A stretch of DNA of 64,000 bases from Geosiphon pyriformis uo1 (Eukaryota > Fungi > Glomeromycota). Numbering within the stretch: position 1 is the stretch's first letter; each line of letters starts with the position of its first letter. The notes below the pieces were generated by a model. It did no database searches, was not told where the DNA came from, and worked only from the letters and a program-made list of their open reading frames with translations. The DNA is taken from assembly GCA_016748015.1 (NCBI GenBank), contig JAAOMT010000112.1, positions 1,561-65,560 on the forward strand, written 5' to 3'. Below are positions 14,761 to 46,241 of the stretch, piece by piece. A program made the translations under genes and the position numbers.

Positions 14761-14915
14761 TCAGTCATAAGTCCAAGTAGTTCTAAAGTTTTAACTACCA
14801 AAATTGGTGGTTTAGAATCCAAGATGATGGCTTTGGAGGTTTCGGTTGAATCTGTTTTGGAAAAATTGGATCATTTGTGCTCAGGTTTGGGTTTGTTGGC
14901 TGCCTCTATTTCTCA

Positions 14916-20554: not shown

Positions 20555-21602
20555 TATTGTCCTGATTAGTTCGAGTGGCTGGTCACGTGTAAAAAGAGCA
20601 TAATTTACACCTAGTTTAGATCATTTTGTATGATGTATTGCACTAGGCAGTGTTTGGACTTTACTCATTAAATCAAAAAAAATATATATATATATAAATT
20701 AAAATTATTATTAAACAAAAATTTTATATATTAAAAACTACTTAAAAAAACAAAAAAACATCTAATATATTAGTTTTTTTTTAAAATATTTAACAAAATA
20801 TTATAATTAGTTTTATTATTAATATTCTTATTATTTAGAAATTATAATATTAAAATAAATCAAATTAAAACTAAATTTTTAAGATTTAATTTTTTTATTA
20901 ATAAAATATAATTTAAGTAAAAAATTTTACTTTTATTAATTAACTACTTATTTATTATTATATTAAAAATCAATCATAAAAAAATACAATATCTTAATTA
21001 ATATTTTAAAAACAAAATTTTTTTACACATATAAAAAATATTCAAATTAATATTATTTAAATAATAAGTAATAATTTAACAAAATTCCGAAACTTTTTAT
21101 CAAAAAGTTTCTTAGTAACCATATTTTTAACTTAATTAAATTGAAAAATAAATTTGGAAATCTTTATTTTAAAATCTGCAAATCCAAAATTTGTGTTAAA
21201 AAAATTTAATATAAAAGCAATTTTGTTTTTAACTTGTAATTATTTAAAAGTTTTAAAATTATATAATAAAAATAGTATTAAATAAATTAGTTTTGGATTT
21301 TAGGTTTTTATTGTAATTAAATTTTATTTTTTATATATACTTTTAAAAACATAATATATTTAAATATAATTAATAATAAATTATAATATTACTAATATTA
21401 AATAGCAAAATTGTTTATCTAAAATAGTTTTTTTTTAAATTTTGTTAATAAAAAGTTTAATATTTAAAATTTTTTTTTTTATTAGGAGTTTTACGAGTGC
21501 AGCCCAATTACTACCTAAATATATAGATCTACATAATCTAAATTAAGTGTGGCTCATGCCTTTTCTACAAGTGACCAGCCATTTGGACTAATCAAAACAG
21601 CA

Positions 21603-24600
21603 CTATATACCAAGATTTCTTATTACAGAGACATCACACAAAAAACCAAAATCAGATCTGATTAGACATAAATATAGCCCAAAACACACATAGATACCTA
21701 GCCTGAAACCAAACTCCCAGATCGTCTCAGTAGATCATGATAAAGACAAACCAGATACTGAAGGAATAGAAGAGTCATCACATGGCAGGAGATTATGCTT
21801 TTCATAATAAAACCTTAACTTAGCCACAGACAACCAAATGGCAGACCTGTGTCTTTCAGCAAAATAACAAATGAAATTAACAACCAATACACCTTCACCA
21901 GATTCAGCACCCAAATGGCCCAATGTGTCAACCATCCAACTTTTCAGCACAAAACCCTTAGCCAGTGCAGTGAACAAGTCCATGAAAGAAGCAGCCTCAA
22001 TCAGCAAATTAGTGACTGCATTCCCATTGGCAGAAGTGTTTAGTAATATATTCTACTCTAAAGCAGCATTAGACAATAAAGTATCCTGAACATTGACATT
22101 ACAAATACAAGAAAAAATGTGATCAGAGTTCTCTACTAAACCATACTGAATACAGACAATGTTTGGATAATTCGGGTTATACATTTTTTTCTTTTTGGCA
22201 ACTGGCAAACAATAATAGAATGTCTTTATAAAGTAAGATTGAAGTGTCGCTAACACAGTATTAGTGTAGCTAGATCTGATTCTGCTATTAAGATGCCAAA
22301 CACAAAAAGTCTTGGTTTTATCAAAATAATTACTGAGACTCATACTAATAACGCTACCAACACATTTGGCCTTTCAACCAACAGATTGAACAGCATTGAA
22401 TAATATTTTAACAACATAACAAGTGTTTTTGAAGACATGTCTGCTCTCAACATTAAGAAAGCAATAAGGTACCACAAAAGACAGAAAGAATCCAGAGGCA
22501 ATAGTTGCATCAGCATAGAAATTGGCCCATTCATTTCCAACAACATCAGAATGGCCTTTGACTTTATTCTAAGTAACTGACAAACTTTTTTTGGAAATGA
22601 CATAGCAAATATGTTTCTTCTTAATCCAGTATTTGTTGTAAAAGTCAGGACCAGTCATACCACCAGCAAATTTGCACATGTTTAGTAAAGCTTGGCTGTC
22701 TATATACAAAACAACAGACTGAGAAGTGGGCATACACTTCAAAGCAAGTGCAATAGTCTGCAGTTTTACTAGAGTTAACGACAACAACCCATTCACTTTA
22801 ACTCTAATACTAATGTTCACATCTGGAAAATAGGTGGTAGTACCATCACAAGCACCCACCAAACCCAAATTTTTGACAGAACTATTTGTGTAGATGGTTA
22901 TAAAGTCAAATCTGGAATTCAGTAGATGCTTACCAATGTAACCAAAGTCACAAAGAAAGTCAGTGGGAACAAAACAAAAAGACAACAACACACTATTTGC
23001 CAAGCCACTTTCAACAATAAATTTGACCAAAGAAACAAACCAGACAAAAACTGGGCCTCTAAGGTCCAGCTTCTTCTATCTGCAAAAAGTATTCCATGTA
23101 AAACACTTGCCATAGCAGTTTAAAAGCTGGTTTACAAACACAATACTGTATTTTTTAAGAGACTTCACTATGCCCAAATAAGACTCAAAACTGAGCATAT
23201 CTAAAACTGCAATACTATTCCCAGTCTAAAAAACATCAGGCAGATCACTGTTCAATGATAAGTTACACAACTTGAGAGCACATGTTACACCAGCCAAAAA
23301 GCAGTTTGCAGGATCAACCAGTAACTCAATTGGAAATTTAAGAGGGTGTCAGAGCATTCAGCTTGTGGTCTACAACTCCATGGCTCTGTATTTGAATAAT
23401 TCACCAAGGATTTTGTCAACATTAGCAAATTTAACCAAGCCAGCCAGCAGATTCTCAGACAGTACTTGCTTAAAAGTTCTTAAGTCATACAGCTCTGGAT
23501 GATACAAAGCTTTATTTGGAAAGTTCTTGGGCAGATTGGTCTTGAGCTTCAAATCCTTCCTTAATATTTTGTCCCACTTTTCACATACACTCTTGAAAAC
23601 ACAACTGAATTGCAGTCTATAACCAATTATAGACTGTAATATAGCAGAAACCAAATATAAAAACTGCTTTTTAGTAACAGCTTTCCTTAAAACCACATTT
23701 GAAAAGAACTTGATATCTGAATAAGCTTTGGCCAAACTCGGCTTAGACAAGCCATTCATAGAAAAAAAGATCTATAAGTATCAGTAAAACTCACTCTTTT
23801 TTACAATGGAGATTTCTGAATCACTAATAGATAATAAAACATCTTTGGCCTCTTGATTAATAGGAATGGCAACCATTTTGTCTGTGTTAATAGCAATGTC
23901 ATTGATCAAAAAAAATTCACTCACAATGTCTAAAATGTGTTGTGTAGCCACTAGGCAGTTTTCAACCCAAATAGTATCATTCACAAAGGCACCAGTTGCA
24001 AAAAAAGAAGTTTTGCCAACCTTAAGGTTAGCCCTACCAGTCTTAGTAAAAAATTTTGAATTCAACCTATATCCACACAGATGTTCATGCTTTTTGACCT
24101 CACAAAACAGAGAATCATAGAAGATTCTTCACAGCAATGGTGAAAAAACTTCCTCTTAATCCAACCCATTATAAACAGTATATCCATCAGTAAGTTTAAA
24201 GTTTGTTATCATTCAGTTGGTCCGACCATTGTGTATGTTTCCAAAAAATTTTATAAAATGGAGGCACATCTTAATCCTAACTAAACTGTTCTACAAATAA
24301 AGCTATTTGATTGAGTTATAAGCTTTTCACATATTTTGAAGAACCAGTCATAGCTCCCTGCTTTTTTCAAGTACATTCTCAATAATAAAGCCAATGGTAA
24401 AAATTGGAGTTTAAGTAGACGTACTTTTTAAAACTAAGAAATTATCACTACAAAGGACATTAAATTTACTGTATGCCAGAGATATCCTGTCAGAAAGAAC
24501 TTTAGACAATATCTTCCTGGTCATCTCAACCAAAGCTATAGGCCTGGTATTGGTAAGTGTTCTCTTCCAGTCATACAGCTTTGGTATCATTGAAATCTAG

Positions 24601-26292
24601 GCTTGCCTCCATTGTAGGAGAACTGCACCTAACTTTAAACACATATTAAGAATATTCAACAAATTTCTCAGAATCTAAGCATCTCCATGTTTTCAAAGCT
24701 CATTAGAAATACCAAAAATGCCAGCAGCTTTCTCATTAGGCAGTTCTTTGACCACCAAGAGAAACTCATTTGATCTAATCACATCTATAACATCTGAGAA
24801 TGCACTATTACTGACATAGTTCAAGAAAGCATATTGATTAGACCAACAATCAGGCAGAGAGATAGGAGCAACTTATTTCCTTGTCCATCCTTCCATGATA
24901 TTATTAATGGCAAATTTAACTTCTTTGGATTTTAAAATTAACTCATCATCCATTATTAGATAATCCAACACTACTTTCTTAAAAAGCCATTCCAAAACAT
25001 TTTTGATCATATGTTCTTTATTGGAACTGAAGGTTTCTATGCACTTGTTTATTGCTTTCCTAATCAAAATGTCTCTGGCTACTCTAGACTCATAGTATTT
25101 GGACTTCTGGTATGATTTTTTGACTCCTGATAGGTGTTGAAGAATGTTCTCCCTGCTTTCACCATTATTAAACATTATGTATGCTTTGGAGGTTCTTTTA
25201 CTATCAAGAGTGAACCACACTTTAAAGAGACAAACAGCTTCTAATTCCTGATTTAAGCTCAAACACTTAACTAACTTGGCCACCAACAATTTCAGCTTAA
25301 AAAACTTTAAAGACAGCTTATTTTTCGGACAATTAAACTCACTAAACTAGTGTCTAGAAAACACACTATTAGCTAAGCCTATAACCACTTTCTTGAGAAT
25401 TCTCCATATAGCATTCAAATTTCTATCATCTTTTGTATTATTAAATATATTTATATTTTTCAAGAACTTGTCTAATGAACATTCCCTAAAGTGTAACCAC
25501 TTATCAGCATCTGCATTCTTGATCTTTGAATTTTCACTTATCTTTATTGGTCTGTTTACACTTACCATTGAGCTGGACATTCAAGAGACTGCCCAGTCTA
25601 ATTGAAACCAAAACAGCATTATGATTAATGTTAAAAAAATCAGAGACAGGAGTAATCTCATGATCAGCCAACATAGACAACAAATTTTTGCTCATGAAAA
25701 TGTAGTTGATAACTTTTACGACACCCTGGGAGTTGCTTCAAGTGGAAGCTCTGACCAGAAAGTGTCCACTAAAGGAGTTGACCAACTCCAAATCCGAATA
25801 GAACTTATAACTAGCACTTTTTCTAGATCCATTTTTATTGAAATCACTGCTGAGAACCACAAACATGAAGAAATTAGCAGCCTTGGCAATAAAGAAGTTG
25901 ATTTTGCAAGCTTGGCCAAATCTGGTTTTAGCAAAAGCACCTGCATATAGACCCAAAATCACTACTAACAATTTGCCCTTAAAAAGAAGCTGAACAAAAA
26001 TAAGACAATTAAGAATTTTTTTAATCTTAGAAACATAACATACAAGAAAATCATTCATAATAATTGCCATCTCAGCACCAAGAAATCTTTTGTCCAAACC
26101 AGAAGAGAATATTTTTACTTCATCAAACTTGTTTATAATCCAAGACCTAGCTTTGGACTTCAACTTTGTTTCTGTAACAATAGACACCATACATCCAGAA
26201 TCTATATGCCACTGAACAATGTCTTTTTGCTTGGCAAGAACATTGATACCACAAACATTGCATGTTACAATTTTCCAAACCAGATCTATCAT
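21603..26292 (-). pseudogene. LINE D ORF2: APE-RT-RNase H-Zn finger
   Basis: Fragments 25738-26292 (WKIVTCNVCG), 23781-24065 (GAFVNDTIW), 22569-23030 (RNase H), 22053-22343 (Zn finger). Confidence 0.88.
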
Positions 26293-27419
26293 TGAAAAAG
26301 ATGCACAGCAGAAATCAAACCAGCATTGTCAATTTTGGCCAAAAAACCCATAACCATGATTAAAAGATTGTTCAAAGTTTTTTCTATTTTAGAGACAACT
26401 GAAAAATCAAAAACTGCCACTTCTACAATAGTCTTATTACTAGTGACCACATCTGAACTCTTACTTATCACTATATCTGCTCCTTGATTTTGTGATAAAA
26501 GGATTACCAATGGCTAATATCCAGAACTAGGCTGGAAAACCATTGGCCTAGGTGAGTCCAATCTCTTAACCAACTTGTCAACACATTCCACAAGGCTAAC
26601 AAATTATGCTCAAAAGTGGCAAACTTATTATTTAATTCTACAGACACCATCAGGGTAGATTTTATCTCTGAAGAGGAACTAAAAGCAGTTGTGTTATTGT
26701 ATACATGAAGAGAAGGGAATGAAAACCCACCAACAATGTTGGCCCATAAAACACCATTAAAAGACATGGGACAGAAGATTGGAGCAAAGCATTTAGCATA
26801 AATGGAAACCAGTTTGCTTTTATTATCATCCAACAATATCCTACAAGTTGTACCACTAGGAGAAACATTCTCATCCACAGAACAACTTAGAGATGTATGA
26901 CCTAAATTCCTACACTTAACACACTTAGCAGAACTTAGATAAAATCAATGCAGATTAGCACCTTTTAAGACAGGTGTAGTTTCCATAATAGCATCAATTG
27001 AAGCAGCAGAGTCAAAACAAACAACAACACACTTGGCCTAAGCATATATAACAGGGTGTTGATTAATAACACATGTTTTTCCACTCACAGAGCCAATAAA
27101 GTCTCAGATATCATGAGCATTGGTACCCACCAGCAGTGTATAAAGCAAAGCCCTATGCTGATCTCTTGCATCTCATGATTCTTTGTCTGCATTAGTCTTG
27201 GCCACTTTCACAGCATCTTTCCCAATTAAGATAAACCATTTAGCTGTGACCAAATCAGCCTGATCTGATTGGGCAAATTCAACCACAGTCTTCTGTCATA
27301 GTCTTACCAATTGCATCTTGATTAACACAACAGAACTAAATTCAGAAAGTGCAGTTCACACAGCCTTAGCTGAAGTTCCAACCAGAATTTTTTTTACCAC
27401 CACAGTCCAATCTGAATGA
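26289..27419 (-). pseudogene. LINE D ORF1, 3' part
   Basis: SDWTVVVKKI..., GKDAVKVA, ALLYTLLVGT, KTCVIN, CVKCRNLGHTSLSC. Confidence 0.8.
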
Positions 27420-28289
27420 TGTTATAGGTAACTAGTCTGGTGTTGAATTAAATAACAAACCCATAACTTGGTGCTCAAATCTAGTTGCAGTTGATAGTAA
27501 TCTGAAGATTTGTGTCTGAAAGGTTTGTATCTGAAGGGTTTAGTTGAGTTCTTTGTATAATGAACAGAGATTCAATGGTAATAGTTTTATCCATAGCTTC
27601 CTGAAACCGCAGTTTCATTAATTTCTTTTTCAGCTTGATGGCCAGTATTCCTCCTGGTAAGCTATCTTCAATCAAGTGTTCTACCCTTATTTCTGGGTCT
27701 TTTACCAGTCACATTTATCTTAACATCAGTACCCCATGCGTTAATCCTCAATAGAGTTAGTAAACAACAATAAAATCAAAGCAAAAAATAAAGAAAAGAA
27801 AAGAAAATAAAGAAAGAAAAGAAATAAGCCAAGGCAATTTGCAAGTTAGTATTCCGTCAATAGCCATGATCAAGAGCTATTGTTTCAGTGTGGTTAAGTA
27901 TCGATTACTATCAACATGAAGTGTTGATAGTGGCAGCAGGTTTGAGATAACAAACAGTTATTTATTTGTGGTTTGGAAAGTTGTCCAGATGAAATCTAAA
28001 CTGAGAGGTTTGTCTTTTTAGTTTTTAATCTTACTGCTATATATACATAATTGAGATTTCTCAATTCCTCAATTCTTTACAACAGGAATCCTGGGATTCC
28101 TGGAATCCTGCAATTCTTTTGAAAGGAATCCTGGAATTCTGGAATCCTGCAATTTCTTATAAGAATCCTGTAATTCCTAGAATCCTGCAATTCCTGAGAG
28201 GAATCCTGGAATTCCACATTTTACTATATCTACTTCTAATTGGTTAATAACTATGCTAATATATATTCCCTATATTTCTATGAGTAATA
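27420..28289 (-). repeat. 3' LTR (870 bp)
   Basis: Direct repeat of 36782-37621; about 30 bp longer in the internal repeat block at ~28083-28215. Confidence 0.95.
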
Positions 28290-28292
28290 TTA

Positions 28293-28304
28293 TTCCCTCT
28301 TTTT
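28293..28304 (-). other. Polypurine tract (AAAAAGAGGGAA)
   Basis: Lies 3 nt upstream of the 3' LTR on the minus strand; a similar tract AAAAAGGGGAA lies at ~28339-28349. Confidence 0.8.
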
Positions 28305-28962
28305 AATATTGAGCTCTGTTGAAATCTAACTCTGTTAATTCCCCTTTTTGAAGTATTTCCTGAATTTTATTTTCGAGAATTACTTGTGTTATTTGAGTCT
28401 GTAATTCTTTAAATTGAGCATTGGTGATCTTTCCTAATTGATTACTGGTAACCATATCCATTGTTTTGTTGAGTAAGATTTCTGGTCAATTTTGAAATGC
28501 TGTGTGTATTTGGTACATGACTCGGGCCTGTGTAGATAAGTTGTTCTTTCCCAAAAAATGTTCTAATTGTTGTAGTATTCTTGTGTTGAATAATCGCTTT
28601 GTTTTATCCATATATAGATTCTGGATATTCAAGTATTGTTCCAAGTAAAAATAACAATAGTTTCTTGGAAATTGTTGTATCCACCAATTCCAAGTTTCTT
28701 TAGTCAACTCTTGGTATAGTGATTTTTTTGTCGACTCTTTAATTGCTAATTTTACTTTTTTAATGATTTTGTCAACAGTATTTTCTGTTTTCTTCTGTGT
28801 TTTATGTGGTGATGTTTTTTTAGTGTCTTGATATTGGATGATTTGTTAATTAATTGTAATTTCCATCTCTTGGTGTTGAATCAATTGAAAGAGTTGTTGT
28901 GCTAGTAAGTAAATGTTGTCTGTAATTTCCATTTTTCTGATATTTCTTGTCACATCTATCAT
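28303..28962 (-). pseudogene. Gypsy ORF3, unknown ~219-aa protein in the env position
   Basis: ATG 28962 to TAA 28303 in one frame, with only two internal stops (TAA, TGA), each one C>T from CAA/CGA; includes track ORF 28486-28707. Confidence 0.75.
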
Positions 28963-28985
28963 GTCTTTATATATTCTTTGATAGA

Positions 28986-30368
28986 TTAATTTAATGTGTT
29001 GTTGTCAATGATAATGATTGGTTCCAGATCTCATGGAATTTTCTCTGGTTGGACTAGTATCTTCTGTACTCCTAATTGTGGAATATTACTGGTGGATAGT
29101 GGTGTGATGTTGTGATATGATTTCAGTCAATCTCCATGTGCTGCTTTGGTTAAGATTTTGTTATCCAGTCTTAATTTGTAAGCTCCATTCCTTAGAATTT
29201 CTTCTATGTGAAATGGTCCATCCTATTTGGGATCAAATTTTCCACTCCATTGTTTTTCCGCTTTAGTACAATGTAAGAGTACTTTGTCTCCAATCTTGAA
29301 TTTAACTGGTTTGTCTGGTAGTTGATTATTATGTCTTTCTTTTTGTTTTTCTTGTGACTTTTGTATATTATCAACTGCTTTTTTTCGTTTGTTTTCCAAT
29401 GTTTCTATTAAGTCATATGTTCTTCTTAACAATGTTTCTTGGAAATTCTCTTCTGTTATTGGTTCAGTTAGATATGTATTAACCTTTATCTCAACTGGTA
29501 ATGTTGCTGTTCTACCATATATCAATTCAAATGGTGTTGCTTGTGTGGTGTTTTGTTTCATTGTCCGATAAGCAAATAATACTGATAGTATGAACAAATT
29601 CTATTCATTTTGGTTTTCTTGGCTGAGTTTTGCTATTGCTTCACACAATGTTCTATTAAATCTTTCAACTAATCCATTGGTATGTGGATAGTATAGTGAT
29701 AATAGTGGTCTCTTAATTCTGAATCTTTGGCTTAGTTCTGCTAATGTTTTATTCACAAAATGGGTTCTTTGGTCTGATAATAGTTCTTTTGGACATCCAT
29801 GTTGACAAATCAGATCTTGATAGATGAATTTGGCAATAGATTCTGCATCCACTTTTTGAATTGCTTTGGCTTTTGGCCATTTAGTAAGATAGTCCATGAC
29901 TATTGCAATATATCTGTTGCCTCTGTTGGTAATTGTCAATGGTCCAACTAAATTAATTCCAATACAGTCAAATGGTTGTCCCACTTTGATTGGTCTCAAT
30001 GGTTTGCTGGGTCTTGTTCCTCCTTTTCTTTGACAAGCATCACAATTTTGCATATATTGAATGATGTCTGGATATATTGATGGCCAATAGTATCTCTTTC
30101 TGGTTCTTTCCATAGTTGCTTCTTTATGAAAATGTTCTGTAGTTGGATCTGAGTGCATATTGAACAGTATTGTCTCCTTTTCTGGTTCTGTAATTACTCT
30201 GGTTGGTTGATCTGAATCTTTTCTATTTTTTTGATAAAGTATATTTTGGTGAGTGATAAAATATTTAGATTGTTGTTTGATCCTCTTTTGTTCTAGTTGA
30301 GATAATTTCTCCTTGAATTGTTGAGTATTTATATAATGTTGAAGTTGTTGATATTTTTATGTGTTCAT
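28986..30368 (-). pseudogene. Integrase (HHCC-DDE-GPF), apparently a stand-alone ORF of ~460 codons
   Basis: MNT*KYQQLQHYI.. is in frame with 29601-30158 and 29223-29597; HSDPTTEH..CDAC, LLSDQ, NGLVERFN, DGPFHI; no chromodomain seen. Confidence 0.85.
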
Positions 30369-30429
30369 TTTTTGTTATATTTTCATGAGTATTGTTTTGG
30401 CTTTGTTATATTTTTGGATTGAAATGTTC

Positions 30430-33400
30430 TTAGATTTGTCTTATTTGCAATAAACCATCAGCATTTCCGTTGTTTTTTCCCTTTTTATAATGTATAGTAT
30501 AAGTATATGTCAAAAGAGCCATTTTTTATTTTAACTGTCTTCTGTCTTCAAATTCTTGTTTTTGGAGTGATGTCAATCTTTTGTGATCTGTGTACACCTC
30601 AAACTTTTGGCTCAAGTATTCTTTCCATTTCATAACTGCCCAATAGATTGCTAGATGTTCTAATTCTGGTGTTTCATAGTTCTTTTCAGCTGGAGTCAAA
30701 TCTCAGCTGGCATATGTGACTGAATGTTCTCTTCTATCCAATCCTCTCTGAGATAGTACTGCTTCCAATGCTTGACCTGATGCATCAGTAGTGATAATGA
30801 ATGGTTTACTATAATCTGGATAGATCAATACTAGAGCTTAAATAAGCTTTCTTCTTAAGATGTCAAATGCTTCTTACTGGGTTTCAGTCCATTCATACTT
30901 TGCATTTTTGGTTTGAAAATTATTAAGTGGTTGTGCTATCTTTGAAAAGTTTTTTATGAAGCGTCTATAATAGCTTGTGAATCCCAAGAATGATTTCAGC
31001 TTGGTTACATTGATTGATATTGAAAAGTTCTTTACTATTTCTATTTTCTCTGGATCTGTTTTTATGCCATCTTTGCTAACTATGTGTCCCAAGAATTTTA
31101 GTTCTGTTTTGCCAAAAAAACACTTTGTTGTATTTAATTTTAATTCTGTTCGTCATAGTCTTTCAAACACTTGTTGGAAATGACATAGATGATCATTGAA
31201 TGTTTTTGAGAACACATTGGTGTCATCCAAGTATACAACTACTAATTTCCACAATAAGCCAATATACACAATTTTCATTAGCCGTTGAAATGTAGCTGAA
31301 GCATTGGTTAAGCCGAATAGCATAACTTCAAACTCAAAGTTTCCCTCTCTTGTAGTGAATGCCATTTTTTCTTTGTCGGCTGGATCCATGGCTACTTGTC
31401 AGTACCCACTATCCAAGTCTAACATTAAGAACCATTTGTTTTCATCAAAAGTGTCAAATAGTTCTTGTATCTATGGAGTTGGATAGCTGTCTTTATGAGT
31501 TACACCATTGAGTTTTCTGTAGTCTACACAAAATCAGATTTTTCTATTCTTCTTATGGATGAGTACTACTGGTAACAACCATGGGCTTATTGATGGCTGA
31601 ATTAACTCGTTGTCAAGCATTCAGTTGATTTCTTGACAGATGATTTTATGGCTGGCTAGTGGTACCCTATATGCTTGCTGTTTGATTGGCATTGTATCTC
31701 CAGTCTTGATCTGATGCTGAATAATATCAGTTCTGCCAAATTCATTTTCACTGGCAAAGATGTTATTGAAATTATTGAGTATCATTTTTAGTCACATTTG
31801 TTGAAGTGGGTCTAGATTTTCCATGTTTATCTGTTTCAATTGTTCTGGCTGTAACAGATAATATTTGTTTTGTCCATAGATGGTTTGTGATGTAATGTCC
31901 ACATATCTACAAAGCTGTGGAAAATCTGGAATACTGCTTGGTGCTTGATCTTTAATTTCTGTGGTTAAATATCTGAGAGTGGTTCTTTCTGGTATCTCTA
32001 CAACATTTCCAGTGTTGTTGTAGATGGGAATTTTGATATGGTTATGGCTCTTGGCTGGTATGTGTAGATTGATAAGTCCAATTTCTCCTGATTCACAAAG
32101 AGTTGCTTCTGCTTCAAAAATTTGTTCTTGCTCCTTCTTTCTCCTTTCTATTGCTAACATGTATTGGCTATATGGTAGAATGGAAATTGTTTGACTGGTT
32201 GAGATAATTTCTCTTTGGCCAATAATTTTTTCCTCTACCATATTGACTGGTACATCTATTCTACCCATTGATCCAAATCTTTGTATCCCTCTTGCTGTTA
32301 TCCCTAATTCTTTCCTATTTCCCACTAAAACTAACTGAGCTATTTTTACCAGAGACAGGAATATTGCCTGTGCTATTCTTTCATTTGGCTCTATAACATA
32401 GGCCTTTTCTGAGTCATTTTGTAGCATAGCAATTATATTTTCTACATATCTTGCATTAATTATTCCTCCTCTGATGTTTATTCTCTTTTTCACTAAACTA
32501 CTTCTAGATGCTAATTGAATTATTGTTGTTGCTGAAATTTCCAGTGTTATTTTCAGATCGATGCAAGTATGCGAATTGGGTTTCAATTTGATGGCATTTT
32601 TTCTTGGATATCTTAGATCAAATCCTGCATCAGTATCATGCACATGTTCTGGCATGATATCTTCATTATTATCACTGAACCATTTCAGTTCTTGCTCCTT
32701 GGTGAGATTAGGGAGTGTGATATATTGTTTGTAGTTTAAATCAGAGTTTAAATCTGAGTTGGAATTATTGTCATTATTATAGCCATTTTGAATGGAGCTG
32801 GAATTGTTATTTTTGTTATCATTATTGTCAGAGTTTAAATCGGGATTGGAACTCGATTCCAATTCTGATGTGTAGCTGTTGATTGGTTCTTCTTCAGGGA
32901 TCGTGTAGATCATGCGTGGTAGTGGATTGTAGATAAGATCACAATCATCACAGAATTAAAAGTTACATGGAATCAAACAGTGGTCACATAATTGGGTGTT
33001 GATTTTTTTTAAGCATTGCTCTTGCTCTTCTCTCATGGGTGCTAGATTCTGATAGTGTTCATGAAATTCTTCTAGGCTGTTTTCTAAGTCAATAAAGATG
33101 TTTGGGTTAAGAACCAAAACAATGTCTGTTGGTTCTAAAGGGTTATTCTTGATCTTCAGAATTTTATTGGACAAAGTGCCTTTTACTTTAACATTGGCCA
33201 TTCACCAGATCTTATCCTCGTCGTGTGGATAGCTGTCTAGGCGGAATATAGCTTGGTGCCATGCTGCTATAATGGACATATCACAACTTACCCAGTTGCT
33301 AATGAGGATTGTGTATTGGCACAAAGTGTCACACGTTCCTCCTCAACCAGGAATGTTGTTCCACATTTCTTCATCGAGTAATTGTTTGCCACAAACAAAA

Positions 33401-36400
33401 CATGGTTTGTTGTCCCACTTGCTTTGTTTTTTTGGGTAGCCATATTGTTCCCTATGGCAGAGTTTGCAATAGTAATGGGTTTGTGTCCAGTAGTCTTTGT
33501 TTAGTACTACCTAAGCTTCCATTGAGGACAGTTTCTTTCCACAGTTCTTGCATTTGAGAGGTATATATGGCAGCTCTTTTATTGGTTCATGTGAGTATTC
33601 CCTTTTCCAGTCACTAGTTATTTCTTCTGCAGTGGTGGTTTCTTTAGGTATGTTTTCTTCCCTTCCTTTTCCTTTTTCCTTGCTCTTTTCTTCCCAATCT
33701 AGAATTGGTAGCATCTCGCTTTAGTTGTTGTTGGTCCAAGCATTAATGGTGGCTTCTCAGGTAGATTCTTCTCTTTGTTTCTTCTTTCTATTGTTATTGT
33801 TGTCCCAGGTGAGTATTGGTGGCAGTTTGTTGTGGTTGATGTCGGCCCACAAGACTTGGTATGCTTCCCAGATGGGTTTCACTTTTTCTTCCTCGAATTC
33901 GATAAGTGGTGTTGATGGCATAGCAATGGGCTTGAAATGGCCACACATGGTAGGTACTCATGTGTGTTGACCATTCTGGCTAAGCTGGAGCTCTTGGGTG
34001 TTCCAATCTAAGGTTGTGTTGATTTTGAACAGCCAGTTGTTCCCAACAAGTGCTTGGTATTGAGTGGCTTCCATGATGAGTACTTTGATTGGTACTATGA
34101 GGCTGTTGACTTCTATGGGAAAATCATCAATTTCTCCAATAGGTGTTTTGGTCACTCCATCAGCTGTAATAATCCTGGCACTGGCAGCATGATCAACTCG
34201 GCAACCTAATTGATCTATAAGTTGTCTTGTGATGATGCTGCCAGCTGATCCACTATCTAGGATCAGTTTGATGAAGTGACCATTAACTTTCACATTAGTG
34301 TACATCATGGTGATGGGTTTTTTCTCAAGTGCTACTTCATTGAACAAAGATGGGTTGATGGTTTCTTCCAATTCAAAAGGAAAGATGGCTGCGAGAGATT
34401 TGTTTTTAGTAATCATTGCTGGTGGAATATTGTTGATAAGTGTTGTTTGGGGTGGGTTGAATTCCAAGTTGTTGATAGTGGCATCTTCTGGAATAACCAG
34501 GAGACTTAAATAGTTCTGGGAATTCAGATTTTGGGTGGAACCAGTACCCGAATTCTGCTATCAAAAGCCTGATGATTGGTAAGAAGAGCTGAAGATTGGT
34601 TGATAAACAACCATCGCTGATCTCCAGTTTTGAGTGATTCTAGGTCTTAAGTTTCCTGATGTTATTTGAGTGGAGTTTTGGAGTGGTGTTTGAATTGGTT
34701 GTTGGGGCTGATAAATTATTTGGGGCTGTGGCTGATAAATTACTGGTGGTTGCAGTTGATAAATTGGAGGTTAATATACTGGCGGTTGATAGATTGGTTG
34801 CTGCGTCATTGGCAAGTAAATGGTTTGATATTGGTTTTGATTTGGGTAGTAATTTTGAGTCTGAAATCTGCAATTGGGGTTTCAATATTGATTTCCCAAT
34901 CATGAATTGTTGCTATAAAATCAACAGTCAGCTCTAATGTGACCTTGTTTACTACAGTTGTGGCAAACATGCATTTTTGGCTGCCATGGCTAATTGGATA
35001 ACAATGATGACAATGATGTTGATGGACATGGCTGATTTTGGAAACAATTTGTGTTTTCTGAATTATTGCATTGTTGTGGTGGTTGATAGATTGCACAATT
35101 GTTAGCTAAGTATCCCTCTAGTTTCTAATTGATTGTATTACTGAATTGTTTTAGTTTGAAATCCAAGTCAGATGATTCGTTCATCACTAAATTTACAGCT
35201 TGGGCATGTTGGCTTTTAGCTCAGCTGCTTCAAAATCTCTGGCATGGGTAACTGCAGTGGGAAGGTCAACTAGATGCATTGGGTGTACTCGTTGGAGGAT
35301 GCTGCTGCATAGCCCTCTGATGAACTGGTTCAAGATCTGTGGTGCCATAAAATAATTAGCTTGGATTGCCTAAATTTGGTGCAGATTTCTATGGAAGTGT
35401 CTCAAGTAAGTGGTAACTGCTTCTGTGTTCCCTTGTTTGATAGTAGTGAAGGTATTAGTCAAGCAATTGATACTGTTATTATTACTAAAATATCTCACAA
35501 ACTCTGTCTTAAAATCATTGAAGATTTGGGGTTTGGTGACTAGACTCTGATACCATGAGTTGGCAGTATCCTTGAGAAAGTATGGAATGGCTTGCATTGT
35601 CCTGGCATTATTCTATCTATTGGCTGCAATGGCTTTTTCGATGTTGTTAAGCCAGACTTGGGTGTTGTCTTCTTCATTGGTAAAATTGTCGATTTTGGCA
35701 ATTGGAGTGTAGGCCATTGGATCTAAATTTAGTTGCTGTTGTTGGATGGGTGGCTGAAGTGGTTGTTGTGGCTGGTGAATCAGCTGCTGGGGTGGTTGTA
35801 AATTTTGCTAATTTGGCAGCTGAATTGGTTAGAGCAGTTGTTATAGTGACAGTTCAATGAGTTCAATTGGTGGGTGATTGATGACGATATTCAGAGATAA
35901 GTTTAGATTAATTACTCCGGGATTTTTATTGTCTTGATTTAGTGGTGTTCTAATATTCGGAGTTTTGATTTCAGAGTTTTCTTGATTTGGATTTCTCGGA
36001 GTTTGATCATTCAGAGTTTTGAATTCTGGGTTTTTAGGAATCAGGTTTTCCTCTTTTTCTTGTTCTTCTTCTTTAGACAATTCCCACAGAGTAGCAGTGC
36101 TGAAATCTGGTGGCAATGGTGGTGATCAAAGTCCTGATGGTGTTGGCAATCACGAGTTAAATCCTTCAAAATATGCGCCATATGGTCCTAATAACTCTGC
36201 TTTCCTTTGTTTACTTTGGAATAAGAATCATCCAAATGCTGATGTCGTGTTTGATGTGGCTGCGCCAGTAGATGTAATATTAATGGTGCTTTCGGGTATA
36301 TAGTGGTATAATGGATTAGTTGGGGACTCAATTCTTGTTTTCTTTCAAGTAGGTGGTTGTATTTTTTTGGGTGTTACTGCTGATGTTTGCAGTTTTTCTT

Positions 36401-36722
36401 TGCCTTTGCTTGCGTAAGTAATGGGGTATCTTTGCTGTGTGTGATGTTCAATTTCTTTGTTGATTTCTATGATGATGGAGGCGAAATTGTGATTTGTTGG
36501 CAGGTTGGTATTTTAAATTAATTCACTGTAAAAGGCTTCTCTTGCTGATTCAATATTTACTGGTGTTCTTAACAGATGGGCAATTCTTTCATTGATGTAG
36601 AAATTAAAAGCTGATTCTGCTGATATGTGGTTGTGATTTAATCCCAAATATTAACAGTAGTGTTGAAATAAGGATTTCATGAATCCTAGATGGTTTGCTC
36701 CTATGTTTTCTGATTCTGCCAC
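30430..36722 (-). pseudogene. gag-pol polyprotein without integrase (capsid, CCHC, protease, Cys-rich insert, dUTPase, RT, RNase H)
   Basis: MAYTPIAK..AIPYFLKDTANSWY capsid; CHNCSKQGHIRADC; LILDSGSAGS; DYRKLN, YLDD; TDAS, YTDH, NADGL. One frame from 34980 to 30430. Confidence 0.92.
32260..32690 (-). pseudogene. dut: Trimeric-type dUTPase domain within pol
   Basis: All five motifs, partly mutated: DAGFDL, ASRSS, GGII(N)A(R)Y, ERIAQ, RGIQ(R)FGS(M)G. Confidence 0.9.
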
Positions 36723-36762
36723 TTTTAGATTTGTGTTGGTGCTGGTTCTCTGTAAGATTATA

Positions 36763-36779
36763 CCTCACAGAAAGCACCA
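36763..36779 (-). other. Primer-binding site TGGTGCTTTCTGTGAGG
   Basis: 2 nt inside the 5' LTR end; complementary to a tRNA 3' end ..CCUCACAGAAAGCACCA. This resembles elongator tRNA-Met ends, but the identity is inferred. Confidence 0.8.
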
Positions 36780-36781
36780 AA

Positions 36782-37621
36782 TGTTACAGGTGACTAGTCT
36801 GGTGTTGGATTAAATAACAAACCCATAACTTAGTGCTCAAATCTAGTTGCAGTTAATAGTGATCTGAAGGTTTGTGTCTGAAAAATTTGTATCCAAAGGG
36901 TTTGGTTAAGTTCTTTGTATAATGAACAAAGATTCAATGGTAATAGTTTTATCCATAACTTCCCAAAACCACAGTTTTGTCAATTTCTTTCTCAGCTTGA
37001 TAGCTGGTATTCCTCCTGGTAAGCTATCCTCAATCAAGTGTTTTACTCTTATTTCTGGGTCTTTTACCAATCATGTTTATCTTAATGTCAGTATCCCATG
37101 TGTTAATTCTCAATAGAGTTAGTAAACAACAATAAAATCAAAGCAAGAAATAAAAAAAAAATAAAAAATAAAGAAAGAAAAGAAATAAGCCAAGGTGATT
37201 TGCAAGTTAGTATTCTGTCAATAGCCATGATTAAAAGCTATTATTCTAGTATGGTTAAGTATCGATTACTATCAACATGAAGTGTTGATAGTGGCAGCAG
37301 GTTTGAAATAACAAACAGTTATTTATTTGTGGTTTGGAAAGTTGTCCAGATGAAATCTAAACTGAGAGGTCTGTTTTTTTAGCTTCTAATCCTACTGCTA
37401 TATATATATAATTGAAATTCCTTAATTTCTCAATTCTTCACAACAGGAATCCTAGAATTCTTGGAATCCTGCAATTTCTTTGAGAGGAATCCTGCAATTC
37501 TGGAATCCTGCAATTCTTTATAAGAATCCTGTAATTCCTGGAATTCCACATTTTACTATGTCTACTTCTGATTGGTTAATAACTATGCTAATATATATTC
37601 CCTATATTTCTATAAGTAACA
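36782..37621 (-). repeat. 5' LTR (840 bp)
   Basis: TGTTAC..GTAACA termini; TATATATATAGCAG TATA-like box at ~37395-37410 on the minus strand, downstream of the U3 repeats. Confidence 0.95.
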
Positions 37622-38374
37622 ACAACCAGTTAATTTCTTGAGATCAGTGTTTACCAAAATATTTGCCACTCTTGCTTTTTTTGTAGCCTGTGCCAAACTA
37701 AATTCAGAAGTAAAGGAAGCATAAATGATTCCTGAGAATTTTAAGGGGGTAGAGGCCTCGCCAAAACCATTAACTTTTGAAAACAATCTTCTAATGACCA
37801 TCAGCTTCTCTTGAGAAGATTTTCCAACCACTTTATTCAAGCTGATATCTAAAGTGAAAGATTTCCTAACAGAAATAGTAACCAAATTCTTCAAGGGAGA
37901 GGGAAGTTCTAAGATAACATTCAAGAGAATATTATCATTATCATCACTATGACTTAAGAAATCTATTCTCCCCAATGGCTTGCCCAAAACTTTTTTAGTT
38001 TTAACATCTGGCCTTTTAGGCATCTGATCATAATCTTCATTAACAATAGCCTCACTCTTACCATAGTCAAAGCTAGTTTTCTCTACTAGACATTTTTCCT
38101 CCATATCAATACTTTCAGACTTGGTGGTGTCATCAGTCTTAGAACCCCATAAACAATCACTTGGCACCTTAGTTAGAACTCCCTTTTTACCAACACCCTC
38201 TTCCAAAGCAACACTTTTTTTCTTTTTCCTTGACAAAACAAGCCTGAAACCTCTACCTAAACCAGAATCTTTAGCAATCTTTTTCATGATGGTAATACTA
38301 GGGCCAACAGTGGCCTTAAAATCAAAAAACGGTTTGGTTTTATCGTACTGAATGTTGAAAAAAACTTTTTTCAA
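37622..38374 (-). pseudogene. LINE D ORF1, 5' part
   Basis: Track ORF 37610-38374: KSFTLDI..FSKVNGFGEASTPLKFSGII..VNTDLKK; resumes at 27419. Confidence 0.85.
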
Positions 38375-40210: not shown

Positions 40211-41078
40211 CATAAAAAAGAAACATAAGAAATAATAGTAGCATAAAATAGCTAATAACAAAATAGAAAATTATTAGAATATATAATACCAAAAATTTTA
40301 AAAATACCAATAAAGATTTTAAACATTTCAAAAATTTCAAAAATTGCAAGAAAACCAATAAAAATATCAAGAATTCTAATAATAACTTAAAATAATTGTA
40401 AAAATTTAAGAATTTTATATTACAAAAATTTATGTATATATAACAGAAATAATAAAAATCAAAAAAACATTAGTTTATTAATTAATTATTAAAAATAAAA
40501 CAACAGACAAGTTCACTTTAAAATCAGTCTAATTATTTTTATTTTATTAACAACTATAAATTAAATAAACTATTTAATAAAAATCTTTATTTTATTTATT
40601 TATTAATAAATTTAAGAATATTATATTGAAATTTAATATTTAAAAATTAGTGTAATATTTTTGTTTAATTACTTTAATCTAACAGTAAATTTGATTAAAT
40701 TAAGTAAAATATTAAGTAATAATTTTATTTGTATTTTGTTTAATATTATTAAAATTTATTTTAAAGCTGTATTATAATATTTAGATTACTAAAATATTTT
40801 AATAACATATTTTTAAATTGGACAAAACTTATAAATTTTGTATTTAAATTTTAATATTATAAATTAAAAGTGCTTTTTAAAAAAAATTAAAATTAAAATT
40901 ACTTTTTTTTTATTTTAATTATTTATTTGAATAGATTTTATTTATTTTTTTATTAACACATTTAATAAGTGTAGCTCAATTGCTATCTAGTACATAGAAC
41001 CAAACTAAGAGGCTCAAACTAAACATGACTCATGCACTTTTTACATGTGGCTAGCTACTCAGGCCAGACAAGACAACA

Positions 41079-44000
41079 CTACACATCTATAATTACCCGC
41101 ACACTGCCACCCAGACTGAAAAAGAAACAATAAGGCTTCCGACGACCAAAGCTAACAGCAAAAGAATTGGCCACACCAAGCAATCTCACAACACCATCAG
41201 ACAAAACCGAAGACACACCACAAGGGAGCCCAGAAACAACACCAATGTCACAGACCAGACCAGCCTTTTCCATCACCACCCAGTGACTGGCCCTAACTAA
41301 CCATACTTTAGCATGATGCAACCCAACAACAAACCTGACAAAATTAACAATCTGAGCAGCGGCCATCTTTCTATCTTTAAAAACACCACAAGCCTCCTTA
41401 TACCACTCCTCCAGCACAAACCCTTTGCACACCAAAGTGTACAGCCCAACATCAATAGAACATTGAGACAAAACTCACAACACAGCAGAAGCAAAGGAAC
41501 CACCAGCCAAAGCTGACCAATGGGCAGAAGCCTCCACCAAAATCTCACCACGGACATCAGACTCATGAACACAAGTAAAAGCGTGGTCAGAGAACTCCAC
41601 CTTACCGCAAAACAAACACAATACACTAGGGTAGCACTTATCATACAACTTTTTTCTTACCGCCACCGGCAACCTTCTGTGTACAGCCTTCATAACATAA
41701 GTGCAAAGCAATGAGGATGCACGGCTAGTAAACCCAGCAAGCATATGAGAATCAGGATGCCACACCTCTGCCGTGACAACCCAGTTTATGCAACCAATCA
41801 TTGCATCCGGAACCACATCACAACCAGGCCCAGCTTCCCAACGAGCACAACAAATTGATCGAAAAATATTTCTGACAAAATGATGGGCATTACCAGAAAC
41901 AGCAACACCCTCAGCAACCAAACAATGTTCACGCACATTGGCACAAAGGGAAAAGGGAAACCCAGAGGCAGCCCCAGCAGCCAAGTCAGCTTTTACATTA
42001 CCAGGAATCCCAGAGTGTTCTTTCACCTTAACCCAACTCACGCTAAGATCCTTATTCCTAACCAAATTGAAAATATGACACCTTTCCAGCCAGCATTGAT
42101 TACGGAAATCAGGGGCAACCAAGGACATCTCAGAAACACATGCGTCAATGGCAGCCTGGCTGTCAAGACGTAGCACCACAGTACTAAAAGAAAGAACACA
42201 CTCCAAAGCCAAAGTAACAGCCTATAATTCAGCCATAGTAGATGACAAAAGGCCACGAACAGCGACACTAATGCTTTTATCCAAGACCGGAAAGTATGCA
42301 ACAGCACCACAGACAACCTCAACAGAGCCTACATTCCTCAAAGACCCATCCGTAAAAACCTCAAAAAAGCCTGACCAAACATCATACATCACATCTTTTA
42401 CTGCAGAAAATTCCTCAGACCCCAAAATGTCCAAACCAAGCTTTTCTGCAGAGCCAATAGAACCAGAAAATGAGTAACCCTGACCTCTCAAAAACTCAGA
42501 AGAAACCATAAACCAGTGAGGCACAGGGCCATGCAGATCCAACTTTTTCCAATGACAAAAAGTTTTCCAATTCAACAAAATGCCCTTCTTATCAAAAAGC
42601 CGATCACCAAAAGTGACACCAAAACATTTAAGAGATTTGACTGAATCAAAATACAGAGACTTTCCAAGAACAGAGAACAATGGAAACCGACCAGGACTAC
42701 AAAATGCAGTGGGGAGGTTGTTCACCAAAGCAAGCTCATTGTCTAGAAAGATCTTCACCATCCCAGCCAAAAAATTGTTTACTGGACTAACATGCAACCT
42801 GACCGGAAACTGCAAAGGATCCAAAGGAGCCCAATCAAGAACCTGAAGGTTCAAAAACCTATGTCTAAACAAATGCCCAAGAATACCATAGGCATTAGAG
42901 AACGCCATTAAAGCAGCAACCTTCCCTTCTGACTGCACCTGCTCAAAAGGTTTTAGGCCATACAATGAGGGATGATGCAAAGCAGCATCTGGAAAATCAT
43001 GGGGAAAACAAGCCTTGGACCTAAGACCCTTTTTAACCAAGACATCCCACTTGCAACAAACATTAGATGAGACAAAACTGAACTGAATATAATAGGCAAC
43101 AATAGGCTGCAAAACAGCCAACACCAGATAGGAGAACTGTTTGTCTGTAATAGCCTTCCTAAGCACAACATTAACGAAGAAACGTACATCTGCATGAGCC
43201 TTGGTGACACTCGGCTTGGAGAGCCCTTCAGTTGACAGAAAAATACCCAGATACTGATGTGCTTCCCCTTTCTTGGCAATAGAAATTGGCTGACCACAAA
43301 TGTCTAGTGAAGCAACTTTAACACCCTAATTGATGGGAATAGCTACCGTCTTCTCACTATTAATAGAAATATCATTGATCACAAAAAATTCACTGGCAAT
43401 GTTCAGAGCATATTGAGTAGAAGCTTAACAATTTTCAACCCAGATTGTATCATCAACAAATGCACCAGCTGAAAAATATGATGTCAAACTGCCACCGCTC
43501 TCAATTCTGCCAGATTTTGAAACAAACTTAGTATCAATCCGGTACCCACACAATTGTTCGTGCCTCTTAACCTCACACAAAAGCGAATCGTAAAAAATTC
43601 TCCAAAAAAGTGGCGAAAAGACCTCACCCTGATTCAGCCCATCATGTACCTTATAACCACCAGACAAACCAAAGTCAGTCATTACCCTATTAACTCTATC
43701 CTCATAAATACCACCAAAAAACCTTATGAACCTCTTACACATCTTGACACGCCGCAAACTAGCTCTTAAATGGTGCCACCCAACTGAATCATAAGCTTTC
43801 TGCATATCTTGCAAGACCAACCATAACTCCCTATCCTTCTTAATGGCATCCTCAATCACCAATCCAACAGCAAACACTGGAAATTGGGTAGACATACCCT
43901 TCAGCACCAAAAAGTTGTCACCCTGAAGAACATCAAACTTGCTACAAGCCATTAAAATACGATCAGACAGAATCTTAGAAAGAATCTTTCTGGCTGTCTC

Positions 44001-46241
44001 AATCAAAGCAATGGGCCGAGTGTTTATAAGAACTCCATCCCAGTCATAAGGCTTAGGAATTATTGACACCCAAGCCCTCTTCCACAAAACAGACACCACA
44101 CCAACAGACAAACATTTATTAAACAGCGCCAACAGGCACCCCAAAACCATCTCACTACCATGTTTCCACAACTCATTAGGAACACCAGACAAACCAGCAG
44201 CCTTGCCATCAGAAAGACCACCAACAACGGAGAGTAATTCGCCCATACTGATTGCACTCATAACACCCGAAAAAGCATCATCCCGAACATGGTCCAAAGG
44301 CATGTACTGACAAGTCCAAAGACCAGGAAGCACTGACTGCACGGAGCGTTTCCTCATTCACCCCTTCATTATTCTATCCACACTGGACTTCACCTCTTCA
44401 GACAACAAAACCAGATCATCGTCAACTATCAAGTGATCCAACACGATCTTACAAAAAGGCTTTTCCAACACACTCCTGATCATATTACCCTTATCTGAAC
44501 AGAAATTATCCATGCACTTCTCAATCACCTTCCTAACTGAAGCTTCCTCAGCCAACCTTGATTCAAACATTTTTGATCTCCTGTAATCTCTGCGAACCAA
44601 TGACAAATGTCTAACAACAACATCAGATTTAACACCCGAGCCCACCAAGTCCTTGAAAACACGAGCCTTCGCGTCATCCAGAGTCAACCATTTACTCACA
44701 AGATGATCAGCACCCAGCAAGTCACCAGAGCAAAATTTTTTGACAATCTTGGCCACCAACAANNNNNNNNNNNNNNNNNNNNACTGACGAGCCCAAAGAC
44801 CAGGAAGCACTAACTGCACGGAGCGTTTCCTCGTCCACCCCTCCATTATTCTATCCACACTGGACTTCACCTCTTCAGACAACAAAACCAGATCATCGTC
44901 AACTATCAAGTGATCCAACACGATCTTACAAAAAGGCTTTTCCAACACACTCCTGATCATATTACCCTTATCTGAACAGAAATTATCCATGCACTTCTCA
45001 ATCACCTTCCTAACTGAAGCTTCCTCAGCCAACCTTGATTCAAACATTTTTGATCTCCTGTAATCTCTGCGAACCAATGACAAATGTCTAACAACAACAT
45101 CAGATTTAACACCCGAGCCCACCAAGTCCTTGAAAACACGAGCCTTCGCGTCATCCAGAGTCAACCATTTACTCACAAGATGATCAGCACCCAGCAAGTC
45201 ACCAGAGCAAAATTTTTTGACAATCTTGGCCACCAACAATTCCAGACCAAAAAACCTAGAAGAATGTTTGTTTCTCGAACACTCGAATTCACTAAACCAA
45301 TGCCTTGAAAATGTCATATCAGCAGAATCCACCACAGTCCCCACCAAAACTGCTCACATTGCATCCACATTACCACATATTTCGGCACCAGAGAACACCT
45401 CACCCAAAGACAAAAGTTTAGCTGATGAGAAATCCTTAAACTTAGCTCATCCAACACAGTCAGCATTCTTGATTTTGAACTTCCAATGATCTTTATTCGC
45501 CTGCTTGCGCAAACTATTCAATTGTACATCTAGAAGCCCACCCAAACTGACTGAAACCACAACTGCCTTGTGATTGGTGTCAAAGAAATCCGAAACAGAG
45601 ACAACTTGATAATCAGCAACAGCAGAAGACAAATTACCACCAACAAAAATGTAATCAATCATTTTCCCAACCCCTCTCGAATTGCTCCATGTATAAAAAT
45701 TAGCCAAATGATGACCAACAAATGAATTGACCAAACCCAAACTCAAACAAAACTTGAAACTAGCACTTCTACCAGATCCATTCTCATTAAAGTCTCCACC
45801 CAAGATAACAAAATTGCTGGAGTTGACTGCCTTTGCAATGAGAGAGTTAACTTCAGAAGCCTGACCAAATCTAGCCCCAGAGGAGGCACCAGCATACAAC
45901 CCCAAAACAGTAACCGAGAGCTTGCCCTTAAACAGGAGCCGAACAGAGACAACCTGACCAGGAATTTTTTCCACCTTAGATACATGACGGGCCAAAGAAA
46001 CGTTCATAATAATTGCAACCCCAGCACCCATAAAACCTTTATCCAAGCCAGAAGAAAATATTCGCACTCCATCAAATTTGTCCTTTATCTATGGTCCAGA
46101 AGAGGACCTCAACTTAGTCTCAGTGATGAAAAAAACCATATTCCCCAAGTTCACATGCCAACAAATAACATCTGCTTGCTTTGCAGAAACATTGATACCC
46201 CGAACATTGCACGTAGCAAATTTCCAAACCAAACTACTCAT
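41079..46241 (-). pseudogene. LINE E ORF2: APE-RT-RNase H-Zn finger
   Basis: CNVRG, GGDFNE, RPIALIE, DMQKAYD, QGEVFSP, AFVDD, FTDGS, WVKVKEHSG..GN..AD, CLFC..DHAFTC. Confidence 0.92.
44763..44782. other. Assembly gap (20 N) flanked by a 457-bp direct duplication (44306-44762 / 44783-45239)
   Basis: The copies are identical except 6 transitions in the first ~65 bp. Confidence 0.9.

Follow-up and report, generated by a model that had tools for sequence, protein, structure and literature searches.

A Ty3/Gypsy retrotransposon of Geosiphon pyriformis with integrase in an apparently separate gene downstream of Pol

Organization of the element

The stretch of DNA analysed here (the window) comprises 64,000 nucleotides of Geosiphon pyriformis uo1 (contig JAAOMT010000112.1, positions 1,561 to 65,560), and is very AT-rich and packed with decayed retroelements. 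One of these is a decayed copy of a Ty3/Gypsy long terminal repeat (LTR) retrotransposon of 10.2 kb, located on the minus strand (37621-27420). Six-frame translation and Pfam matches give the gene order gag, protease (PR), a cysteine-rich stretch, dUTPase, reverse transcriptase (RT), RNase H (RH), integrase (IN) and a third open reading frame (ORF), ORF3. In this family and in a wide fungal lineage, integrase is most probably (roughly 95%) a separate gene with its own start, and its split from Pol is not a product of decay.

The Pol frame runs from approximately 34950, at the zinc knuckle, through RNase H to the sequence NADGL-LQIRQI and stops at a TAA codon (30432-30430) five codons past the last RNase H motif; a second TAA in the same frame follows after seven sense codons (30408-30406). 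The spacer behind the first stop (30429-30369) is 61 nt long and A-rich, with 36 of its 61 nucleotides being A (59%, within the top 1.6% of 61-nt segments in the coding part). It contains three G and is predicted to be unstructured, with a minimum free energy of 0.0 kcal/mol. The integrase ATG at 30368 lies in the context AAAAATG, with A at position -3, and is in the +1 frame relative to Pol. Within the spacer, an extra ATG located 18 nt upstream of the integrase ATG is followed by an integrase-frame stop (30377-30375). The integrase ORF (28986-30368, minus strand as for all features of the element) encodes a YPYY region, an HHCC zinc finger whose first His is residue 72, a DDE core and a GPY/F motif; its end is placed at the TAA at 28988-28986 because relatives (P0573) read through 29033.

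An earlier note on this DNA had described the Pol stop after NADGL with a second stop seven codons on, and the 61-nt A-rich spacer leading to an ATG in another frame, and these coordinates are confirmed. Its statement that Pol holds one frame is correct as regards the frame, but omitted 23 premature stops in 1,507 Pol codons. The observed/expected ratio of CpG in this copy is 0.17, and the integrase frame contains five internal stops, one of them at codon 4, and has lost the first catalytic Asp. The window copy is dead, and the split must therefore be judged from other copies; the caveat of the earlier note, that a single decayed copy leaves an indel possible, was apt.

The element is bounded by a 5′ LTR of 840 bp (36782-37621; TGTTAC...TAACA) and a 3′ LTR of 870 bp (27420-28289) that begins with TA rather than TG; the two are 88.1% identical over 868 columns. 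A putative primer-binding site, recognized from sequence only, lies at 36765-36781 with TGG 2 nt past the LTR, and a polypurine tract (28290-28304) adjoins the 3′ LTR. The flanks TTGT (37622-37625, 5′ copy) and TCAT (27416-27419, 3′ copy) each differ by one CpG-type change from TCGT and would represent a decayed 4-bp target-site duplication that, at this one site, is CpG-centred and not CCGG or CCGT. The element is inserted in a copy resembling a long interspersed nuclear element (LINE), and the empty site in related LINE copies is visible in three contigs of run X1 that bridge 27418 to 37625.

The gag gene (approximately 34920-35800) was recognized by eye in the six-frame translation from a capsid-like region and a CCHC zinc knuckle, the Pfam gag matches being on relatives only. 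Its frame changes near 35207 in the window copy, and a 1-nt insertion at 35207 is present in 13% of the X1 depth. Aspartic protease (34030-34296; PF13975, E 3.9e-11) is followed by approximately 400 codons (about 32700-33950) with several CxxC pairs and an acidic/Asn-rich stretch; Cys/His clusters are likewise found in the long Pol tails of relatives L007 and P0188. dUTPase (32287-32655; PF00692, E 2.5e-17) lies between protease and RT. RT and RNase H (30433-31698) carry nine premature stops in the window copy. Behind integrase, an A-rich spacer of 23 nt (28963-28985) precedes ORF3 (28303-28962), which has approximately 220 codons and begins at its own ATG or at a second ATG 10 codons on.

The direct LTRs, 4-bp flanks, PR-RT-RH-IN order and Gypsy-type RT/RNase H place the element in Ty3/Gypsy, and the best 120 long relatives have PF00078 with PF17917/PF17919. 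The position of integrase within the Pol polyprotein, a usual Ty3/Gypsy trait that is not formally defining, is lacking. No chromodomain (PF00385) was detected on the window ORFs or on 120 stand-alone integrase relatives.

Conservation of the junction

Other copies of the family were seen only as short contigs of run X1, with runs X2 and X3 contributing next to nothing. X1 made up 61% of the sampled words, and 93,345 contigs aligned to the element; 1,076 contigs aligned to the junction by itself (30335-30465). Nine variant rows of at least 3% were recorded at the junction, none of them touching the ATG or any of the three stops (the Pol stop at 30430-30432, the second one in the Pol frame and the one in the integrase frame); base 30433, beside the Pol stop, was scored at a depth of 395,171. 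The sole junction indel is a +1 at 30385 (4.4%) that keeps the Pol stop, and nine indels of at least 10% across the element all lie outside the junction. The premature stop at codon 4 of integrase is a private change of the window copy, with another base in 99.3% of the depth at 30359. The extra spacer ATG is not kept in the family, two of its bases differing in 64% and 40% of the depth as a decaying CpG would.

A search for proteins of similar length (245-781 aa) returned 504 at E <= 1e-30, of which the best 120 were analysed (390-453 aa, 43-49% identity); the closest relatives with a named source belong to Rhizophagus, Entrophospora and Cetraspora. A Met occupies the Met column of the window in 102 of the 120, that is, in all 102 that cover the column; the other 18 begin further down, and two have residues upstream. 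As the length limit excludes fusions, longer proteins were searched as well, with 115 matches, five of them above 270 bits. Four of these five (P0247, P0248, P0250 and P0251) are eukaryotic gene models without an RNase H end, an integrase start or RT, and are read as probable artefacts. Truly fused single frames with a short RH-IN linker are P0249 and P0146/P0523, the latter from the Pol search. In the Atlas, Mucoromycota integrase clusters come first, followed by a rotifer cluster and GIN1. A metagenome scan gave three loci, none spanning the junction, and a viral scan three weak, unrelated matches.

From the Pol side, a quick RT-RH tree was built from 131 long proteins, nine of which were dropped for short matches, leaving 122 plus the window, without a Copia or BEL outgroup. 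The window falls in a 39-row group with an SH-aLRT support of 92. Among its 38 other rows, 18 end at most 30 aa past RNase H, 16 have a non-integrase tail of 158-406 aa, three have an integrase and the remaining one is a long-branch plant sequence; outside this group, integrase is present in 76 of 84 rows. In several clade members a single ORF of 1,260-1,820 aa encodes Gag, protease and RT-RH. The tailed proteins are P0149, P0154, P0157, P0160, P0171, P0181 and ten more; Pfam gave no match on the six tails scanned, and in P0158 a dUTPase lies in the post-RNase H tail.

Pol and integrase with consecutive accessions were found in R. irregularis (CAB4415525/526, CAB4415439/438 and CAB4429357/358). 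In these three pairs Pol ends two residues past the last RNase H motif and the integrases have 419 or 289 aa; each pair is on contigs of equal length, with adjacency judged from the protein records and not from DNA. Junctions in DNA were obtained from L007 (102-nt spacer, frame 0; its Pol has a long tail, assembly breaks and a double stop), L008 (94 nt, frame +1) and L012 (117 nt, frame 0), with spacers of 36-40% A against an element background of 41%. Together with L009, these are fungal-type retrotransposon contigs within bacterial genome records (metagenome-assembled genomes, MAGs); the five genomes behind L007-L012 were searched and yielded no further junction of the clade. The earlier note had proposed comparing stop and ATG across copies with variable spacers, and on this comparison spacer length and frame vary while stop and ATG are kept.

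The split could instead reflect decay of the window copy or a secondary indel, with an active form in which Pol and integrase share a single frame. The heavy decay of the window copy in both its Pol stops and its CpG content would suit this, as would the existence of fused relatives. However, the Pol stop is fixed in the family contigs, while a stop that did arise by decay, at integrase codon 4 and 71 nt away, is missing from nearly all of the depth, and intact relatives are split likewise; this explanation is largely refuted and scarcely credible. The fixed family stop, the conserved Met and the split in intact relatives bear out the stand-alone integrase of the earlier note.

Several points weigh against a separate integrase gene. 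X1 may be the window's own sample, and its depth is not a copy count. No single piece among the eight listed covers stop and ATG together, and because the ATG lies at the edge of the end filter its constancy rests on the proteins. The 245-781 aa limit favours stand-alone forms, and gene callers prefer Met starts. The four long gene models count on the same side, and the fused P0146/P0523 and P0249 fall in or beside the clade of the window. The ORF upstream of the L008 integrase was not recognized as Pol, and the trees (LG+G4) have weak deep nodes.

Expression of the integrase

Readthrough of the Pol stop runs into the second Pol-frame stop, and fusion by frameshifting is prevented by a stop in the integrase frame 9 nt ahead of the ATG. 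With readthrough, frameshifting and a clean splice blocked, restart of translation, a separate RNA or internal entry therefore remain. We put the odds slightly better than even that the integrase is made by termination-reinitiation on the full-length RNA. Ribosomes would terminate at the Pol TAA, cross the unstructured 61-nt spacer and restart at the integrase ATG; because Gag, PR and RT-RH share a single ORF in relatives, this would yield less integrase than Gag. The free integrase may reach the particle by binding element RNA or Gag, for which foamy virus Pol would serve as a model. A spacer that is unstructured and nearly G-free, has no conserved upstream ATG and no YAG, and leads to an ATG with A at -3 suits an onward-moving ribosome.

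Other observations count against the proposed restart. The core UGGGA of a termination upstream ribosomal binding site (TURBS) is absent within 100 nt upstream of the stop in the decayed window copy, and stop and start are 61 nt apart, without the overlap of the TURBS type. Spacers of 94-117 nt are long for restart, and that of L012 (L012:4440-4604) has an out-of-frame ATG. In all three (L007, L008 and L012) a T-rich YAG lies 12-31 nt ahead of the ATG, and the sequence of L012 would allow RNase H to be joined to integrase by an in-frame GT-AG splice.

Those YAG sites, present in three of the three other spacers, would agree with an integrase expressed from its own RNA in the manner of foamy virus Pol or retroviral Env, either through a spliced subgenomic RNA or from an internal promoter. 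Foamy viruses express Pol from a spliced RNA and package it via genome RNA (PMC7828637), and such a route would leave spacer length (61-117 nt) and frame unconstrained, as observed, and explain ORF3 too. The window spacer, however, has no YAG or pyrimidine tract, and T-rich YAGs are common in AT-rich DNA; a separate RNA is possible but doubtful. Internal initiation on the spacer, similar to an internal ribosome entry site and independent of Pol translation, would draw on the richness in A, scarcity of G and lack of structure of the window spacer, and A-rich tracts can support internal initiation in yeast. The other three spacers have A contents near the element background, however, and we regard this route as highly unlikely.

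The spacer might also be an intron that is removed in some transcripts, fusing RNase H to integrase, for which the PROT-RT intron of plant Ogre elements is a precedent (PMC6317226). L012 has three GT donors past the RNase H motif that can be spliced to TTTTATAG, 9 nt ahead of the ATG, without a stop or a change of frame, and some gene models join Pol and integrase, although the join in P0248 loses the last RNase H motif. In the window, however, all stop-free joins (GT/GC-AG) cost at least 25 integrase codons, including Tyr6 (conserved in 100 of 101 relatives) and the YL pair, and in L007 and L008 such joins cost at least 13 codons. A Met kept in every relative that covers its column would be unexpected inside a fusion, and an intron appears quite unlikely.

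Under the termination-reinitiation favoured here, ORF3 behind its 23-nt spacer may be produced by the same route as integrase. ORF3 ends at the polypurine tract and has 88 relatives at E <= 0.001, down to approximately 26% identity, several of which begin at the same point or at Met 11. No Pfam family was found on the ORF3 part of the relatives scanned, and there was no Atlas result. ORF3 is likely an accessory gene that would be made by the integrase's route; a role as copy-control or packaging factor is a guess. In L007, a 146-aa ORF past integrase is followed by a gag-like frame; a likeness of ORF3 to this ORF, seen by eye, was dropped for want of BLASTP similarity (E 7.1).

The N-terminal region and kinship to Ginger1

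The earlier note had drawn attention to an N-terminal extension of approximately 70 aa in the integrase. This length agrees with the position of the first zinc-finger His, but the novelty does not hold, as a YPYY region is also present in fused Gypsy integrases. A YPYY motif approximately 40 residues before the zinc finger has been described in Ginger1, Athila/Tat, Cer1, Gypsy-1-I_RO and DGLT-A1 (Bao et al. 2010, PMC2836005). In the relatives the corresponding motif reads Y/F (99 of 102), P (79 of 107), F/Y (103 of 120) and Y/F (117 of 120), the window copy being without the Pro, and many fused animal Pols match a profile of the stand-alone integrases, starting at profile position 4-9. Matched by its text description, the extension is taken to be this known region of an ordinary integrase, in which the new part would be the Met at its front.

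Ginger1-type transposons L027 (L027:7515-12070), L022, L023 and L033 were found in contigs that are filed as bacterial MAGs and so represent eukaryotic contamination. L027 has terminal inverted repeats (TIRs) flanked by CCGG and an Ulp1 match, L022 a PHD domain and a weak Ulp1 match and L023 an OTU domain, and because of these marks the three were used as Ginger1 references. A 300-bp inverted repeat around L027 was rejected as its terminus, the true TIRs lying inside it.

A quick integrase tree of 101 rows contains a 50-row group (SH 99) in which the fungal integrases are joined by two fused long branches and by six animal-type rows, L027, L022 and L023 among them. A more careful tree of 49 rows included plant integrases as well. 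Here the fungal, plant and Ginger1 integrases and two further rows fall on one side of a 100/99 split, and the fungal rows join the fused plant rows (86/98) and stand apart from Ginger1; the bootstrap was not fully settled. Ginger1 as the nearest group, suggested by the quick tree, was not upheld once plant rows were added. Both trees are biased by the choice of rows for their similarity to the query, and the careful tree is unrooted; the trees echo the YPYY assemblage of Bao et al. and give no direction. An approximately unbiased (AU) test allowed the 41 stand-alone and gene-model rows to form one clade that leaves out P0146 and P0249 (p 0.70), which is no proof of such a clade.

These data bear on the possibility that the integrase is a Ginger1 transposase gene that was captured by, or inserted in, an LTR element and was never fused, a retro/DNA intermediate. 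The YPYY and GPY/F motifs and the putative CpG-centred 4-bp duplication are common to both, the quick-tree group unites the fungal integrases with the three Ginger1 references, and GIN1 clusters come next in the Atlas after Mucoromycota and rotifer. The YPYY, H2C2, DDE and GPY/F motifs of the Ginger1 type are present, as scored in relatives. However, RT-RH ends 61 nt upstream of the integrase, unlike the lone transposase of Ginger1, and the window integrase has no introns; the 25 longest inverted repeats in the window include no TIRs of the Ginger1 type (40-270 bp), and no OTU or Ulp1 match in Pfam was found on the integrase C-terminal part or ORF3, while both domains were found on the positive controls L027, L022 and L023. 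Targeting of NCGN is also described for moss Phygy elements (PMC6317226), and the Met lies at the position of the short RH-IN linker of fused relatives (P0249), as expected from a cut fused Pol. With the grouping of fungal and fused plant integrases in the unrooted tree, capture from Ginger1 is unlikely. Of the Ginger/GIN likeness proposed in the earlier note, the two motifs, the putative duplication, the place of GIN1 in the Atlas and the shared 100/99 split stand in a broad sense, but the element is a complete LTR element and fails as a Ginger transposon; the suggested retro/DNA-transposon intermediate is neither shown nor refuted, as the fungal integrases do not group specifically with Ginger1.

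Other features of the window

A third, more diverged LTR copy (75-85%) at 4839-5435 may be a solo LTR or may terminate a related element. LINE-type elements occupy 10300-19000, 21500-27300, 41000-48300 and 51000-57700, with endonuclease, RT and RNase H matches on some ORFs; two LINE-type copies lie 2,915 nt apart at 11800-17700. Being LINE-type, the remaining retroelements have no RH-IN junction. A duplication offset by 477 nt (98%) at 44306-45082, around a 20-N gap (44763-44782), is likely an assembly artefact. Inverted arms of 302 nt (87%) approximately 2.3 kb apart at 60670-63674 possibly mark a DNA transposon remnant, and a 39-nt tandem array (60032-60409) adjoins them.

Significance and comparison with known systems

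In textbook LTR retrotransposons, integrase is cut from the Pol polyprotein, which is also its way into the particle. A lineage without the link between Pol and integrase needs other means to translate, dose and package its integrase, and the intact R. irregularis copies make this question testable. The split of Pol and integrase appears to be a new form of Ty3/Gypsy organization, found in a large fungal lineage, with a spacer between the two genes and a stop that is fixed across a multi-copy family. More speculatively, and with rather low probability, an old, large Mucoromycota lineage may use a three-cistron RNA (Gag-PR-RT-RH, integrase and ORF3) that is translated by serial restart, with free integrase being packaged, and the self-starting YPYY integrase gene may be either the missing step to Ginger1 or a relic of a recruited transposase. 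A self-starting integrase ORF bears on the open question of Bao et al. 2010, the kinship of Ginger1 and Gypsy integrases. A fungal survey that recognized Ginger by its rve domain (PMC5751038) could have scored such ORFs as DNA transposons, since they resemble lone integrases. Pipelines that require an intact Pol-IN frame would label intact copies broken.

A full-text literature search, with subscription journals, Repbase Reports and supplements outside its scope, found no description of an LTR retrotransposon whose integrase occupies a separate ORF. In the portions available, PMC3248453, PMC2864245, PMC6317226, PMC13468544, PMC5751038, 10.1101/2021.03.30.436303 and 10.64898/2026.05.21.726589 either place integrase within Pol, in elements of one or two ORFs, or are silent on the point. 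The element shares with Ty3/Gypsy (Metaviridae), including the dUTPase-bearing fungal PosPlaTy3-5 (PMC2864245), the LTRs, primer-binding site and polypurine tract positions, gag-PR-RT-RH-IN order, dUTPase between PR and RT, and HHCC-DDE-GPY/F integrase. It differs from the usual Ty3/Gypsy form in an integrase outside the Pol frame with its own ATG, in a third ORF and in that no chromodomain was seen. The YPYY integrases of Athila/Tat, Cer1, Gypsy-1-I_RO, DGLT-A1 and Ginger1 have the same YPYY and GPY/F motifs and share the tree grouping; the available part of PMC2836005 reports no separate integrase ORF in an LTR element. Ginger1/GIN1 have the same free-standing integrase ORF starting near YPYY, TGT termini and, if the window flanks are a decayed target site, a CpG-centred 4-bp duplication, but the duplication of Ginger1 is CCGG or CCGT/ACGG, whereas the window site fits TCGT, and the window element has LTRs, Gag and RT in place of TIRs, introns and OTU/Ulp1.

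Among systems in which an enzyme is detached from the upstream frame, the plant elements Ogre and Bianca also have a polyprotein region split into two ORFs by a non-coding gap, but the gap precedes RT instead of integrase and, in Ogre, is an intron whose removal restores the fusion (PMC6317226). Foamy virus Pol poses the same need, in that an enzyme not fused to Gag must enter the particle by other means; there Pol as a whole is detached, and its cleavage still releases integrase (PMC7828637). For the route of translation, the closest comparison is with LINE-1 ORF1/ORF2 and SART1, which likewise have an enzyme ORF downstream of a stop (PMC5972666). These are non-LTR elements in which restart has been tested, whereas here it is proposed from the gene arrangement. 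Mammalian LINE-1 ORF2 is proposed to arise by termination-reinitiation across a 63-nt spacer, compared with 61 nt in the window element, and the ribosomes of influenza B reach an AUG 63 nt on (PMC5972666).

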